Below are positions 237-9,622 of a stretch of DNA of 20,273 bases, piece by piece. Positions within the stretch are counted from its first letter, which is position 1, and the number at the start of each line of letters is the position of its first letter. The notes under the pieces are model-generated. The model was not told the DNA's origin. It searched no databases and was given only the letters and a program-made list of their open reading frames with translations. A program made the position numbers and the translations under genes. The DNA is from a virus: IMG/VR virus record IMGVR_UViG_3300033074_002003. The stretch is one strand, 5' to 3'.

Positions 237-246
237 TGAATTATTT

Positions 247-318
247 GCACTGTTAGTGAAATGGGCATCACGTTTCTCTCTGAAAGAAAAATTGAAGGTT
301 CGAATCCTTCACAGTGTA
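247..318 (+). tRNA. tRNA-Gln(CTG), 72 nt, AT-rich
   Basis: Acceptor GCACTGT/ACAGTGT with one G-U pair. D-stem GTGA/TCAC. Anticodon stem TTTCT/AGAAA with loop CTCTGAA, giving CTG. T-arm GAAGG-TTCGAAT-CCTTC. The N-terminal extension of the track ORF 256..1080 overlaps this tRNA. Confidence 0.65.
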
Positions 319-360
319 CAATGTCTCGTTTCGAACCAATTATTCATCGTGACAACAATT

Positions 361-1080
361 TTGAAATGTGAATTGTGTGACGGTGATCACGAAGGGTTTT
401 ACGGGAGTGGAAGATTTTGCAGCAAAAAGTGTGCAAGGGCATTTTCAACACATAAATCGCGCAATGAAATCAACGAAAAAGTAAGTCAAACCCTTGTAGG
501 TAGAAGTCGTCGACTTCTACGTGCTGATGATAAACGCTTGCTGTTGAAAGTTGTCATTGATGAAAATCAGCTGCGCGAAGAAATCAAATTTGCTGTAAGC
601 TTTCGAAATCTAGCGCTAAGAATGAATTTGTCACTTAATCAAGTTCATAAAGTGAAAAAAACAGTTCAACGCTTGGGGCTTGATTATTCGCATTTTCGTT
701 TGGGACGAGCGCCTGAAAAAGTTCTTTGTCGCAGCAACAAACGAGGTGATTTGCGCGGAGCTCTCCTGAAATCAGAAAGAGAGTACAAGTGTGAAGAATG
801 TGGTCTCACGTCAAAATGGCAAGAAAAGAAGCTCACACTCCATGTCGATCACATTGACGGTGACAACGAGAATCACGAAGCGTCTAACTTAAGATTTCTT
901 TGTCCGAATTGTCATTCACAAACAGATACATTTTCGTGGAAGAACGTGCGACGCAAAAAGCTTCTTAAAAATGCGGGTTCGAGTCCCGCTCTCCCATCTG
1001 CCTGCTCGGCGCAGAGAGCTGTAGACACCTTGACAACAATGTGGTGTGACGTTCGAGAGAGATCGAAGACGGGGCTGTAA
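361..1080 (+). CDS. HNH homing endonuclease, probable TTG start; a paralog of the CDS at 9020..9622
   Basis: HNH motif HVDHIDGDNENHEASNLRFLCPNCH. The N-terminal KCELCDGDHEGFYGSGRFCSKKCARAFS matches MKCERCQVEHSGTYGSGRFCTVKCARSFS of the second copy, so the start is set at TTG 361, in frame with the listed ORF 256..1080. The gene is AT-rich in a GC-rich context. The C-terminal ~40 codons are GC-rich, read through a tRNA 3'-half remnant, and overlap tRNA-Ala, so the true C-terminus is uncertain. Confidence 0.6.
   Translation: MKCELCDGDHEGFYGSGRFCSKKCARAFSTHKSRNEINEKVSQTLVGRSRRLLRADDKRLLLKVVIDENQLREEIKFAVSFRNLALRMNLSLNQVHKVKKTVQRLGLDYSHFRLGRAPEKVLCRSNKRGDLRGALLKSEREYKCEECGLTSKWQEKKLTLHVDHIDGDNENHEASNLRFLCPNCHSQTDTFSWKNVRRKKLLKNAGSSPALPSACSAQRAVDTLTTMWCDVRERSKTGL
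937..997 (+). pseudogene. tRNA 3'-half remnant embedded in the 3' end of the HNH ORF (T-arm GCGGG-TTCGAGT-CCCGC plus acceptor strand)
   Basis: Perfect T-arm at 973-989 followed by TCTCCCA. The only upstream acceptor partner, TGGAAGA, is about 60 nt away, which is too short for a full tRNA, and no D or anticodon arm can be formed. Confidence 0.4.
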
Positions 1081-1143
1081 CTCAATTGGGAGAGTGCTAG
1101 CTTTGCAAGCTAGAAGTTGCCGGATCATCCCCGGTCAGCTCCA
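1071..1143 (+). tRNA. tRNA-Ala(TGC), 73 nt
   Basis: Acceptor GGGGCTG/CAGCTCC with the G3:U70 Ala identity pair. D-stem ACTC/GAGT. Anticodon stem CTAGC/GCTAG with loop TTTGCAA. T-stem GCCGG/CCGGT, but the T-loop ATCATCC is non-canonical. Confidence 0.55.
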
Positions 1144-1162
1144 CAAGGTCGTGATCGAGTTT

Positions 1163-2910: not shown

Positions 2911-2952
2911 GGGCACCCGGGATACAGACGCGGAGCGACTGAGTTCCGGGTC

Positions 2953-3141
2953 TTGACACACACACACGAGGTTACAATGGCTGAAAGTGGATACGAGCTG
3001 CGAGCGCGCATGCTCCAACTCTCTAAGGATATGCACTCGGAGCGCATGCACGCGCAAAATCCGAAAGTTCCGTACACGCTTGATGAAGTGCTGAAGGAAG
3101 CAGAGAGGCTCTACGCCTTTGTGCAGACAAAGACTCGGTGA
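2953..3141 (+). CDS. hypothetical protein (62 aa)
   Basis: GAGG 6 nt upstream of the ATG. Small basic protein. Confidence 0.4.
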   Translation: MTHTHEVTMAESGYELRARMLQLSKDMHSERMHAQNPKVPYTLDEVLKEAERLYAFVQTKTR

Positions 3142-3224
3142 CGAGATGACGTGAGCGTGAGTAGCTCGTTGCAGTTGACGGGCTAGCTCACGTCCGTATG
3201 AAGCAGGATAGAGAGGGTCGAGAC

Positions 3225-3689: not shown

Positions 3690-3759
3690 CGGTGCGTGGT
3701 TTGGTCGACCTAGGTGGCCTTATGAGCACTGAAGGCAGGTTCGATTCCTGCCGTACCGA
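3690..3759 (+). tRNA. degenerate tRNA-like element (good acceptor and T-arm, no canonical D or anticodon arms), 70 nt
   Basis: Acceptor CGGTGCG/CGTACCG and T-arm GCAGG-TTCGATT-CCTGC are good. The central 38 nt (TGGTTTGGTCGACCTAGGTGGCCTTATGAGCACTGAAG) holds two nested palindromes, GGTCGACC and CCTAGG, but no 5-bp stem with a 7-nt loop. Confidence 0.3.
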
Positions 3760-4292: not shown

Positions 4293-4394
4293 CCCACTGT
4301 CCCGTGAAACGGACACCATCTTGCTCGTAGTTCGGTCAAACGGAAAGGGTTCACGTCTTGTTACGTAATGTTTCGTGTTGTGTAATATGTCTAC

Positions 4395-5048
4395 ATGGAC
4401 AACACGAAACGCTACATCTACTTCATTGTCAATCGCATAAACTCTAAACGATACGTTGGACAAACACGTGATTATGTAAAAAGATCTAAGCAACATTTTT
4501 CTGAGGGCAAGAAGGGTAGAAAACGACATCCACTCTACGATTCCATGTTTTCACACGGGATCGAAAATTTCGAATTTGTTGTGATACAAGAGTGTTGCGA
4601 AAATGACGTTGATGAGTGTGAGATAGCGTGGATTAAAGCATTGTGCACTCGTGATAGAAGATTTGGATACAATCTTACGCCGGGTGGTAGTGCAATGTCG
4701 AGTTGTGTCTATGAGAAAATTTCAAAATCAATGTCTGGTAGACATTTCACACCCGAACACAAGGCAAAAATAGCTCAAGCGTTGAGAGGACAAAAGAGAC
4801 CTCCTTTGAAAGTTGAGCACGTTGAAAAGATAAGAAAATTCAACTTAGAGTCGCCGCCCTTTGCGGGTAAAACTCATACTGTTGAAACGCGTGAGAAAAT
4901 ACGTTGCGCAAATTCCAAATTGACGCGTGAAATCGTGAAAGTGATTCGCGAAGAATTCAATAATGGAACATCTCGTAAAGAGCTTGCACAAAAATATCAG
5001 GTTTCGTATAGTGCAATCAAGAATATCGTTGCAGGTAGACGCTGGTGA
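4395..5048 (+). CDS. GIY-YIG homing endonuclease (I-TevI-like, with NUMOD-type repeats)
   Basis: N-terminal RYIYFIVNRINSKRYVGQT with the GIY-YIG signature, Arg (CTRDRRFGYN) and Glu. C-terminal repeated SGRHFTPEHKAKIAQA and GKTHTVETREKIR NUMOD3-like motifs and an HTH-like tail. AT-rich island directly after the tRNA array. Confidence 0.75.
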   Translation: MDNTKRYIYFIVNRINSKRYVGQTRDYVKRSKQHFSEGKKGRKRHPLYDSMFSHGIENFEFVVIQECCENDVDECEIAWIKALCTRDRRFGYNLTPGGSAMSSCVYEKISKSMSGRHFTPEHKAKIAQALRGQKRPPLKVEHVEKIRKFNLESPPFAGKTHTVETREKIRCANSKLTREIVKVIREEFNNGTSRKELAQKYQVSYSAIKNIVAGRRW

Positions 5049-7304: not shown

Positions 7305-7380
7305 GGTGGTGTTAGCCTAGTGGTTAGGGCACTCGAATGTGACTCGAGAAATTCGCACGGTTCGATTCCGGCACATCACC
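7305..7380 (+). tRNA. tRNA-His(GTG) with G-1, 76 nt
   Basis: Acceptor GTGGTGT/ACATCAC, preceded by G-1, which can pair with discriminator C. This is the His hallmark. D-stem GCCT/GGGC. Anticodon stem CTCGA/TCGAG with loop ATGTGAC. The T-loop TTCGATT is present but the T-stem is weak, at 3 bp. Confidence 0.6.
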
Positions 7381-7393
7381 CTATGTAGCTTAC

Positions 7394-8272
7394 ATGCTTA
7401 GAACGTGTGATTATTGTGACTTGACTGATGACTTTAATAGCGTTCAATCTTGGGCAGCACACCGTTCGAATTGTATAAAAAATCCCAATCGAACAGCGAA
7501 GCTGGCGAGAATGAGTGAATCGGCAGCCAAAGTTTCACGTAAAATCCTTGCTTTGACGTGTAGTTGTGGTTCGCTATTTTCCATAGAAGTCACAGACGCT
7601 GAAATTACGCGTGGTGCACATAGACACTTCTGTTCGCGGCAATGTGCAAATCGTCGTCAGCATTCGTCTGAAACCAAACAGAAAATTTCGCAAAGTGTTT
7701 CCAGATTTTTTCCCGAATCTATTTCTGTCGAAGTTGAATGTGCCGAGTGCAAGCGTAAATTCGTTGGTAAAACAGGAAGAACGTGTTGTTCACAACAGTG
7801 CGCTCGCGTAATCAATAATCGAAAAAGAATGATTGCAGCACAGTTGCCAGAAACTAGAGCAAAGATCGCAGCGAAGACTTTAGAGGCTTATGCTAACGGT
7901 CGCGAACAGTGTGGTGGGCGAACGAAATGGTTTGATGTTTACACGCTTCGATACGGCAAAATTCGTGTGCAAGGGACGTATGAAGTTCGAGCGTGTCAAA
8001 TTCTTGACAAGATGCTTGCTTCTGGAGAATTGATCGCGTGGGAATATACACGAGCTAGATTTCCTTATGTAGACACGTCTGGCAAACAACGTATGTACAG
8101 ACCGGATTTCAAGCTTGTTTATCCTACACACGAAGAATTTGTTGAAACGAAGGGATTTTCAACACCAAATGACGAACGCAAATGGGAAGCTCTTCGTTTG
8201 TTGGGTCATCATTTGTCAGTGTGGCGTGAAGCTGATCTCAAACAACGTGAATCTAAAGAGCATATGTCCTGA
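7394..8272 (+). CDS. putative free-standing nuclease with a PD-(D/E)xK / Vsr-like (DUF559-like) C-terminal domain and two N-terminal Cys-rich C..CAR modules
   Basis: The C-terminal YEVRACQILD..WEYTRARFPY..YRPDFKLVYPTHEEFVETKG matches the PD..(D/E)xK arrangement. HFCSRQCANRRQ and TCCSQQCARVINNRK resemble the GRFCSKKCARAFS module of the two HNH genes. AT-rich island between tRNA-His and downstream genes. Confidence 0.5.
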   Translation: MLRTCDYCDLTDDFNSVQSWAAHRSNCIKNPNRTAKLARMSESAAKVSRKILALTCSCGSLFSIEVTDAEITRGAHRHFCSRQCANRRQHSSETKQKISQSVSRFFPESISVEVECAECKRKFVGKTGRTCCSQQCARVINNRKRMIAAQLPETRAKIAAKTLEAYANGREQCGGRTKWFDVYTLRYGKIRVQGTYEVRACQILDKMLASGELIAWEYTRARFPYVDTSGKQRMYRPDFKLVYPTHEEFVETKGFSTPNDERKWEALRLLGHHLSVWREADLKQRESKEHMS

Positions 8273-8895: not shown

Positions 8896-8982
8896 GGGAG
8901 ATTAGTTCAGAGGAAGAACGCGTCCCCTACAAGGACGATGCCCTTAGGGTTTACACAGGTTCGAATCCTGTATCTCCTACCA
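8896..8982 (+). tRNA. orphan type-II tRNA with anticodon loop CCTACAA (TAC by standard numbering, C33) and an encoded 3' CCA; isotype uncertain
   Basis: Acceptor GGGAGAT/ATCTCCT. D-stem GTTC/GAAC. Anticodon stem CGTCC/GGACG is perfect. 17-nt variable arm GCCC-TTA-GGGT. T-arm ACAGG-TTCGAAT-CCTGT. Discriminator A, then CCA. Confidence 0.45.
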
Positions 8983-9019
8983 CACCTAGTGTTCACATAG
9001 TTCGATATAACTATCGTTC

Positions 9020-9622
9020 ATGAAATGTGAACGCTGTCAAGTTGAACACAGTGGGACGTATGGTTCGGGAAGATTTTGCACAGTCAAGTGTGCGAGATCT
9101 TTTTCAACAGCGTCTACTTCTGAAAAACGTTCAGAGATCAACAAACGAGTATCAGCGACACTAACGCAACCGCCAAAAGTAGCGACCTGTTGCATGTGTA
9201 ACACGCGGTATGAAACGCGACATCAGCGTTCTACATGTTGTAGTAAAGAGTGTCGAAAAGCTCGTAAAGCTCAAGTACAACACAACGTAACTAGAGAACA
9301 AAGAATCGAATTGGGCATCAAGAGTTCCTTTGGCAAATATGTTCGAAATCCGACAAGTTTGTATGATTTGAGCAACCGAACAATCAGTAAGATTCTTACA
9401 AGACTCGGAATCGGGTGTTCTTTGTGTGGTTGGTCTGCTGGAAAGTGTGACATTCATCACATTCGTGGTCGGAAAATTGAAGAAGCAGACAGACACGAAA
9501 ATTTGGCCTACGTGTGTCCAAATTGTCACAGGCTGATTCACAACAAGAAAATCAAGATTGACAGTCTTGTATCACTTCAAGATCAGATTGGTGATCGCTG
9601 GAAAGAGCTCTATTACGGTTAA
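9020..9622 (+). CDS. HNH homing endonuclease, a paralog of 361..1080
   Basis: N-terminal MKCERCQVEHSGTYGSGRFCTVKCARSFS. HNH motif CDIHHIRGRKIEEADRHENLAYVCPNCHRLIHN. AT-rich. Confidence 0.75.
   Translation: MKCERCQVEHSGTYGSGRFCTVKCARSFSTASTSEKRSEINKRVSATLTQPPKVATCCMCNTRYETRHQRSTCCSKECRKARKAQVQHNVTREQRIELGIKSSFGKYVRNPTSLYDLSNRTISKILTRLGIGCSLCGWSAGKCDIHHIRGRKIEEADRHENLAYVCPNCHRLIHNKKIKIDSLVSLQDQIGDRWKELYYG

Follow-up and report, generated by a model that had tools for sequence, protein, structure and literature searches.

A tRNA-Gln(CTG) and an HNH endonuclease gene in place of the 5' part of a resident tRNA-Gln(CTG) gene in a phage tRNA cluster

How does the 3' end of a tRNA gene come to lie inside the reading frame of an endonuclease? 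The question is raised by a stretch of 20,273 nucleotides (nt) of an uncultured phage, IMG/VR record IMGVR_UViG_3300033074_002003, the whole of which is here called the window; positions refer to it unless a compared locus or contig is named by its L-number (L002, L097, L190 and so on). The window has a GC content of 56% and carries 26 tRNA calls by ARAGORN, together with a sigma factor, a DNA ligase and other phage genes. Within the tRNA cluster lies an AT-rich island with a tRNA-Gln(CTG) and the open reading frame (ORF) of an HNH endonuclease, which runs through an orphan T-arm and into a tRNA-Ala gene. The island, the tRNA, the ORF, the orphan and the read-through, all recorded in a preliminary description of this DNA, are confirmed, with small corrections of coordinates. 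Comparison with HNH-free relatives makes it probable that a free-standing HNH homing endonuclease gene, accompanied by its own tRNA-Gln(CTG), invaded the cluster at a resident tRNA-Gln(CTG) gene.

The resident tRNA gene and its replacement

The orphan sequence (973-998; on the + strand, like the other parts of the locus described in this and the following section) consists of a T-arm (GCGGG-TTCGAGT-CCCGC, 973-989), the 3' strand of an acceptor stem (TCTCCCA, 990-996), the discriminator T (997) and one further nucleotide. Neither ARAGORN nor Rfam (E ≤ 10) calls a tRNA there, and directly upstream lies conserved HNH coding sequence, which bears out the early observation that the T-arm and acceptor strand have no 5' partner. 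Relatives without the HNH gene were found by a search with the 199-amino-acid (aa) protein encoded 0.7 kilobases (kb) downstream, whose homologs are 88% identical in L097 and 72% identical in L098-L101; contigs L097 and L098-L102 are syntenic with the window. In L097 and L098-L101, an intact, GC-rich tRNA-Gln(CTG) lies between an odd tRNA-Gln(TTG) and tRNA-Ala, and these contigs have neither the HNH gene nor the AT-rich tRNA-Gln(CTG). The resident tRNA begins with TGGGAGA and reads TGGGAGATGG...GCGGGTTCGAGTCCCGCTCTCCCATC (L097 4635-4709, L098 4069-4141), and in L097 and L098 its last 26 nt are identical to positions 973-998. Since these 26 nt match the 3' end of an intact, syntenic tRNA, the orphan is not a chance resemblance. 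An exact scan for the orphan 21-mer gave no hit in viral contigs, 185,579 cellular species genomes or the JGI metagenome contigs.

We also considered an "armless" tRNA in which TGGAAGA (937-943) would serve as the 5' acceptor strand, forming six of seven pairs with TCTCCCA. This candidate was rejected because a gap of 29 nt separates it from the T-stem, because it falls within conserved HNH codons (WKN), and because the relatives contain the true 5' strand, TGGGAGA.

Homology with the HNH-free relatives ends at position 240 and returns at 971/972, the T-stem beginning one or two bases further on. On the left, blastn aligns positions 1-235/240 with L098 3821-4055 and L097 4399-4625 at 96.6-98.2% identity; on the right, 972-1067 aligns with L098 4115-4210 (97.9%) and 971-1089 with L097 4682-4801 (92.5%). 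The last sequence held in common on the left (165-240) comprises the resident GC-rich tRNA-Gln(TTG) at 165-236 and four further nucleotides (TGAA). Between the two junctions (241-970), 730 nt of AT-rich DNA stand in place of the 9-nt leader and approximately nt 1-46 of the resident tRNA. In 100-nt windows, GC content is 0.34-0.48 within about 201-950 and 0.53-0.68 in the flanks, and for positions 237-972 it is 0.40, against 0.56 for the whole window. The preliminary description had drawn the AT-rich segment at 238-960; its AT-richness holds, and the HNH-free relatives correct its borders to 241-970. Alignment with such relatives, proposed at that time as a check, thus yields both the intact ancestral tRNA-Gln(CTG) and the junctions. 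The accompanying proposal, that an insertion had destroyed the 5' half of a resident tRNA, stands as far as the destruction is concerned, given the intact tRNA of the relatives, but the event was not a simple insertion, as about 56 nt were replaced by 730 nt.

The window, L002 and L003 represent near-identical genomes (99% identity), all with the island, and the HNH gene is therefore seen as a presence/absence polymorphism within conserved flanks: present in these three, absent from L097 and L098-L101. Since the missing 46 nt could not be restored by a deletion, it is the truncated state that is derived. Judging from the genomes compared, the AT-rich tRNA-Gln(CTG) is confined to the HNH-bearing ones; it lies inside the replaced block, as flanking sequence transferred together with the HNH gene, which supports the earlier suggestion that it may have been co-mobilised. 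The destroyed tRNA and the incoming tRNA have the same anticodon (CTG). These alignments show that the cassette replaced the resident leader and nt 1 to about 46, so that the HNH reading frame now continues at its C-terminal end into the resident T-arm and acceptor 3' strand, and that the HNH gene came with a tRNA of the same anticodon. The 26 nt of the orphan are invariant across the window, L002 and L003.

A tRNA 3' fragment at one border of a compositionally distinct foreign segment is shared with integrase-mediated tRNA islands, such a fragment is often left by integrative elements at one of their ends, and group I introns can contain HNH ORFs; an attachment-site (att) type island that targets tRNA genes, or a tRNA split by an HNH-bearing intron, would account for these features. 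Unlike integrase islands, the HNH island has neither an integrase ORF nor a duplicated att core, and it has destroyed the tRNA where those islands restore it. There is no att-like repeat of the tRNA 3' end at the borders, the sole match being a direct repeat (D1; 288-307 and 967-986, 80% identity) made up mostly of generic T-arm and an A-run. The 5' part of the tRNA is missing rather than preserved, no 5' half (TGGGAGA...) being present upstream; the HNH ORF lies outside any intron or intein, between tRNA sequences, and an Rfam intron search of positions 1-1400 at E ≤ 10 gave no match. The lack of an integrase, an att repeat, an intron signal and a 5' half excludes these explanations, to which we assign a negligible probability. 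D1 was also considered as a trace of recombination between the two tRNAs and was rejected in this role, as in that of an att site, on account of its generic T-arm similarity.

The tRNA and the endonuclease gene of the cassette

The cassette consists of a 6-nt leader, the tRNA-Gln(CTG), a 42-nt spacer and the HNH ORF without a stop codon of its own. The tRNA (247-318), called by ARAGORN and Rfam, forms a canonical cloverleaf with a canonical T-loop, U33 and a 7-nt anticodon loop. Its Rfam score of 65.6 bits (gathering threshold 29; full-length match, 1-71) is the highest of any tRNA in positions 1-1400, and the Rfam alignment flags zero non-canonical pairs. At 0.41, its GC content is the lowest of the 23 typed tRNAs of the window, the other 22 having a mean of 0.58 and a minimum of 0.46; the initial characterization of this tRNA as well formed and AT-rich is upheld on both counts. 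Its acceptor stem differs from that of the resident copy, with G1-U72, C2-G71, A3-U70 and discriminator A73 compared to U1-A72, G2-C71 and G3-C70. L002 and L003 keep this tRNA, one indel in the D-loop excepted.

The HNH ORF extends from 361 to 1080, of which 361-966 is supported by homology: residues 144-187 match Pfam PF01844 (HNH) with 26.2 bits (cut-off 21.4), and the protein matches PHROG 10822, "HNH endonuclease", with E = 2.4e-34, so that an HNH gene does lie in the AT-rich segment, as first described. The most likely start is the TTG at 361, which aligns with Met1 (MKCE) of homologous proteins. The gene has a GC content of 0.41, compared to 0.60-0.62 in neighbouring phage genes. An FCS-like zinc finger (CxxC...GSGRFCSxxCAR) is recognizable at the N-terminus, to which the PDB match is weak (E = 0.2), and the HNH motif occupies the C-terminal part (about nt 790-921). 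Homologs (n = 3066) are typically 190-210 aa long and end near WKNVKK/RRKRLL, the nearest one outside the window's own phage being 53% identical. In an alignment of 20 sequences, C144, C147, H164, N176, C181, C184 and H185 are invariant, which comprises the conserved His/Asn/His and the paired Cys zinc ligands of the beta-beta-alpha-metal motif. The window and L002 differ at nine positions of the gene, six of the changes being synonymous and three non-synonymous. Because the motif columns are invariant and the changes are mostly synonymous, the body of the gene looks maintained and functional, with catalysis itself as a prediction.

The same alignment places the end of the HNH protein before the end of its ORF. 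Homologs stop a few residues past the conserved WKNV(K/R)(K/R), the alignment ends at about residue 203, and the remaining approximately 38 residues (967-1080) align with nothing; this tail leads through the remnant and the resident spacer (999-1070, aligned by blastn with L098 and L097), which once separated tRNA-Gln(CTG) from tRNA-Ala, to a TAA at 1078-1080, ten bases into tRNA-Ala(TGC) (1071-1143; ARAGORN, and 58.7 bits in Rfam). The reading through the orphan into tRNA-Ala by the GC-rich end of the ORF, about 38 codons, had thus been correctly noticed. In L003, a 1-base-pair (bp) deletion at about 1030 brings an earlier stop (1030-1032) into frame instead of the one at 1080. Since no homolog aligns with the tail and a frameshift shortens it in L003, the tail is by these signs an accidental read-through rather than a conserved domain. 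For annotation, the last 38 codons of the HNH ORF should accordingly be treated as an artefact of read-through, and 973-998 as a fragment of a tRNA pseudogene instead of a gene.

Two further observations concern the cassette and its right-hand neighbour. Between the window and L002, the island (264-971) differs at 12 of 708 positions, and the adjacent 729 nt (972-1700) are identical, which indicates that the cassette and its right flank differ in their recent population history. The tRNA-Ala(TGC) gene itself occurs as three different alleles in the lineages of the window (1071-1160), L097 (4783-5408) and L098 (4215-5149). The window allele has an unusual T-loop, GGAUCAUCCCC; downstream of tRNA-Ala lie a 178-aa HNH gene and an altered tRNA-Pro(TGG) in L097, and a 268-aa ORF (PHROG 23051, annotated as of unknown function) in L098.

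Recurrence in other phages and the alternatives

A second case was found in L013, whose HNH protein (P0018) is 46% identical to that of the window. It has its own tRNA-Gln(CTG) 39 nt upstream, and its C-terminus is fused to an orphan, GAAGGTTCGAATCCTTCCCTCTCGTCCA. L190, which is 95-96% identical to L013 in the flanks and lacks the HNH gene, contains an intact tRNA-Gln(CTG) that ends in GAAGGTTCGAATCCTTCCCTCTCGTCCA, with one difference in the T-loop. Between the two, 53 nt (the leader and nt 1-43 of the tRNA) have been replaced by 695 nt with a different tRNA-Gln(CTG) and the HNH gene. To judge from these loci, the order of an own tRNA-Gln(CTG), an HNH gene and the 3' stump of a resident tRNA-Gln(CTG) is shared independently by two unrelated phages. 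A third event is present in L097 (3658-4400), where a gene for a 223-aa endonuclease (PHROG 15137), preceded by a 12-bp hairpin, has replaced a 5-nt leader and nt 1-46 of tRNA-Asp(GTC) and left the T-arm; this protein has the same N-terminal zinc finger (GSGRFCxxxCARSFST) as the HNH protein and a different nuclease domain. All three events have their right junction 1-4 nt 5' of the T-stem and their left junction 5-10 nt upstream of the tRNA. At the right junctions, 1-4 nt are shared (AT, AC, ACGT), which is compatible with priming or joining on microhomology.

The association with tRNA genes extends to the family at large. Eight other contexts of the closest homologs (40-53% identity) were examined. 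In seven of them, a tRNA-Gln precedes the HNH start by 17-47 nt, with the anticodon CTG in L012, L013, L103 and L108 and TTG in L017, L105 and L107; in the eighth, L014, the HNH ORF reads through a complete tRNA-Gln(TTG). Counting the window, there are five upstream tRNA-Gln(CTG) genes, four of which have the lowest GC content of their own locus. In the wider HNH family, sampled from IMG/VR and JGI metagenomes, tRNAs occur within 1.5-2.5 kb in 151 of 160 loci, and about half have a tRNA on the same strand no more than 150 nt downstream of the ORF or overlapping its end. As a separate observation, an uncalled T-arm and acceptor-like sequence (GTCTGTTCGATTCAGAC TATGATGA) is present at L012 2308-2332, 15 nt upstream of the AT-rich tRNA-Gln(CTG) that precedes the closest HNH homolog, and may represent another tRNA stump, at the left border of the cassette there.

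Other endonuclease genes of the window, all of which have a GC content of 0.40-0.44, compared to about 0.60 for ordinary genes, lie at similarly altered sites. L098 lacks the GIY-YIG/NUMOD3 (SegB-like) gene (4395-5048) and has a second tRNA-Asn(GTT) there (L098 8601-8676); the window (region 4325-5048) retains just the first approximately 8 nt of that tRNA, GCTCGTAG. The gene for a 292-aa endonuclease (PHROG 15137; 7394-8272), absent from L097 and L098, adjoins a tRNA-His (7306-7381) that has only its first approximately 20 nt in common with the tRNA-His of those contigs, the 3' two-thirds being different; this pattern looks like a co-conversion tract that ended inside the tRNA. A second HNH gene (9020-9622) is found 37 nt downstream of tRNA-Val(TAC), with no orphan T-arm after the gene, and L097 ends just before the corresponding position (8896-9622). 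This gene had been taken for a paralog of the island HNH gene; the two proteins have the N-terminal zinc finger in common, but at 29% overall identity they represent separate elements.

Could the tRNA and the endonuclease gene have been gained on two occasions? The HNH gene might insert site-specifically downstream of any tRNA-Gln, with the AT-rich tRNA acquired separately or being an older duplicate, and the resident copy decaying later. It would fit this scenario that the upstream tRNA-Gln in L107, L108, L017 and L105 has an ordinary GC content for its locus, and that the cassette tRNA is not recognizably related to the tRNA-Gln(CTG) found beside homologous HNH genes. However, in the window, the AT-rich tRNA and the HNH gene form one uninterrupted block of low GC content with both ends at homology breaks, no relative has either of them singly, and the L013/L190 pair repeats the joint gain of a tRNA-Gln(CTG) and an HNH gene with the same truncation. 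Furthermore, the 26 nt retained from the resident tRNA are unmutated, so there was no gradual decay. On balance, we consider a two-step history unlikely.

A more radical alternative is illegitimate recombination unrelated to any endonuclease activity, with an HNH protein that is inactive or has another role, for example one associated with packaging, and with an incidental position in the tRNA. The TTG start, the weak ribosome-binding site, the lost stop codon and the left junction without homology would all agree with this. Against it, the breaks of three independent events fall within 1-4 nt of one and the same position in the tRNA, which in itself makes an incidental origin unlikely; the HNH family is found nearly always inside tRNA clusters; four endonuclease genes of the window show a presence/absence polymorphism coupled to an altered or destroyed tRNA; and the catalytic and zinc-binding residues are conserved, with substitutions that are mostly synonymous. 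Taken together, these observations render such an accident highly improbable.

The preferred explanation, invasion by a homing endonuclease gene that brought its own tRNA-Gln(CTG), has to contend with several observations that weigh against it. The cleavage activity and its target are deduced from sequence, and the cut position from the three junctions. Starting with TTG or GTG, lacking an obvious Shine-Dalgarno sequence and deprived of its own stop codon, the HNH ORF could be heading towards decay, and the left junction shows no recognizable homology. The donor of the block was not found, the nearest HNH gene outside this phage being 53% identical. No close relative of the cassette tRNA is present among 594 tRNAs, the best match being a tRNA-Trp at 74%. 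Its identity to the tRNA-Gln(CTG) of L012 is 65%, barely over the 95th percentile of 63%; a kinship with the tRNA-Gln(CTG) genes beside homologous HNH genes was entertained on this ground and found unconvincing. As the cassette tRNA has no close relative, a common descent of the tRNA and HNH pair across phages rests on synteny and composition. Moreover, the upstream tRNA-Gln(CTG) of L108 is not AT-rich, nor are the tRNA-Gln(TTG) genes of L107, L017 and L105, so that these tRNAs may be native and the association may reflect the choice of target site instead of co-mobility. A replacement tRNA-Asp was not seen in the 12.6-kb locus of L097, where the tRNA-Asp event brought none, and a passenger tRNA is therefore not obligatory.

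Searches for further members and relatives returned little. A scan of metagenomes with the HNH alignment gave distant homologs only (at most 40% identity over the full length), which strengthened the link of the wider family with tRNAs and added no members to the subfamily. Among INPHARED phage records, a search for near relatives of the window gave none, a search for distant ones gave only tRNA-sized or HNH-motif matches of 40-73 nt, and DNA matches to the window were limited to 40-50 nt in HNH motifs. Viral contigs searched with the flanking 199-aa protein contained a single locus, 30% identical, with no useful synteny.

Known systems, a possible mechanism and its meaning

The closest experimental precedent, by analogy, is SegB of phage T4, which cuts tRNA genes, recognizing the T-arm motif GGTTCRANTCC, and takes neighbouring tRNA genes with it as it spreads (PMC2330249). 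Like the island HNH gene, segB is a free-standing gene in a phage tRNA cluster and is absent in close relatives; it targets tRNA genes, and its homing erases tRNA markers of the recipient, as an analogous targeting by the island HNH protein would (PMC2330249). The stop codon of the SegB ORF lies at a processing site of the downstream tRNA, which its authors proposed to limit expression (PMC2330249), and that of the island ORF (1078-1080) lies inside tRNA-Ala (1071-1143). The two differ in catalytic family, SegB combining GIY-YIG and NUMOD3 and the island protein an HNH domain and an FCS-like zinc finger, so that the latter would be a functional analogue and, having no GIY-YIG/NUMOD3, is not a member of the SegB family. 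They also differ in that SegB cuts at the 3' end of the tRNA gene, whereas the junctions of the island lie 5' of the T-stem; in that SegB sits between tRNA genes, whereas the island cassette removed the first two-thirds of its presumed target, counted from the 5' end, and provides a tRNA with an identical anticodon; and in that the activity of SegB has been demonstrated, whereas that of the island HNH protein is predicted. HNH-type endonuclease ORFs have been described in the tRNA region of phage T5 (F-TflI/II/IV; PMC2330249), and a review of viral tRNA clusters points to HNH genes in the tRNA arrays of mycobacteriophages, which in its view are likely to diversify the tRNA repertoire (PMC6409571); both resemble the island in lying in phage tRNA regions.

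That an endonuclease gene spreads with differing flanks that replace the allele of the recipient, and can interrupt a gene, is a point of agreement between the island and other free-standing endonucleases. T4 SegF, SegG and SegE provide examples of intronless homing with co-conversion of a resistant allele, and MobE in nrdA of Aeromonas phage Aeh1 of a gene split by an endonuclease gene. The island differs from these in that the interrupted gene is a tRNA, which is not reconstituted and whose function is supplied by a second, complete tRNA in the block. Free-standing homing endonucleases that reside in phage tRNA clusters and take tRNA genes along are a kind already known; somewhat novel are the tie of an HNH subfamily to tRNA-Gln, the same-anticodon swap and the breakpoint that recurs just 5' of the T-stem. 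A search of the literature found no published case of a truncated resident tRNA combined with an incoming tRNA of the same anticodon.

On the basis of these precedents and of the junctions, a mechanism can be proposed. The targets of the HNH enzyme would be HNH-free tRNA-Gln(CTG) genes, which it would cut just 5' of the T-stem, within the variable loop or beside it; in a mixed infection, a genome that bears the cassette would then serve as template for repair of the break. The right-hand end of the recipient, from the T-arm onward, would survive and mark the cut, and the left end would be resected past the 5' end of the tRNA. The incoming tRNA would keep CAG decoding, probably without presenting a target site. 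As the HNH ORF ends inside tRNA-Ala, maturation of the 5' end of that tRNA would remove the stop codon and hold endonuclease expression low, as proposed for T4 segB.

A more far-reaching reading, which we put forward tentatively and regard as somewhat less likely to be right than wrong, is that the block of tRNA-Gln(CTG) and HNH gene forms a discrete mobile unit, sufficient in itself and passing between unrelated phages, destroying the resident tRNA and installing a cleavage-immune tRNA of the same anticodon. The enzyme would in that case recognize tRNA-Gln(CTG) genes, perhaps at the T-arm via the shared FCS-like zinc finger, and cut within the variable loop. If this is true, the phage would stay viable while the element becomes fixed, and the T-arm fused to the C-terminus of the endonuclease would be the scar.

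Elsewhere in the cluster and downstream, additional irregularities were observed. Positions 90-164, for which ARAGORN returns "tRNA-???", have a paired acceptor stem, an 8-nt anticodon loop (ACUUUGGA) that includes UUG, and a non-canonical T-loop, AGCAUAG; this tRNA-like sequence is followed without a gap by the tRNA-Gln(TTG) (165-236), with A33 for U33, a G1-C72 pair and an Rfam score of just 36 bits. Both are kept at 96-98% identity in L097 and L098, with a change from G-U to G-C in the acceptor stem of 90-164. A T-arm-like hairpin, GCAGGTTCGATTCCTGC, is located at 3735-3751, outside the called tRNAs and between tRNA-Thr(TGT) and tRNA-Gly(GCC); all relatives, L097 and L098 among them, retain this hairpin, which could be an old remnant or an unusual tRNA missed by ARAGORN. 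Two indels are also polymorphic: the window and L007 contain a 282-nt segment (2930-3211) in place of which L002, L003 and L004 have about 4 nt, and an insertion of about 244 nt with a 90-aa ORF is found in L003 and L098 at window position ~1410 (1409-1413).

The locus provides a natural example, resolved to the nucleotide, of the remodelling of phage tRNA repertoires by endonuclease genes, in a pattern seen three times independently. It nominates a candidate pair of enzyme and target, the HNH subfamily described here and tRNA-Gln(CTG) genes, with a predicted cut just 5' of the T-stem. For this phage lineage, the tRNA cluster is a patchwork of such events, at least five endonuclease genes across its lineages each being tied to an altered tRNA.

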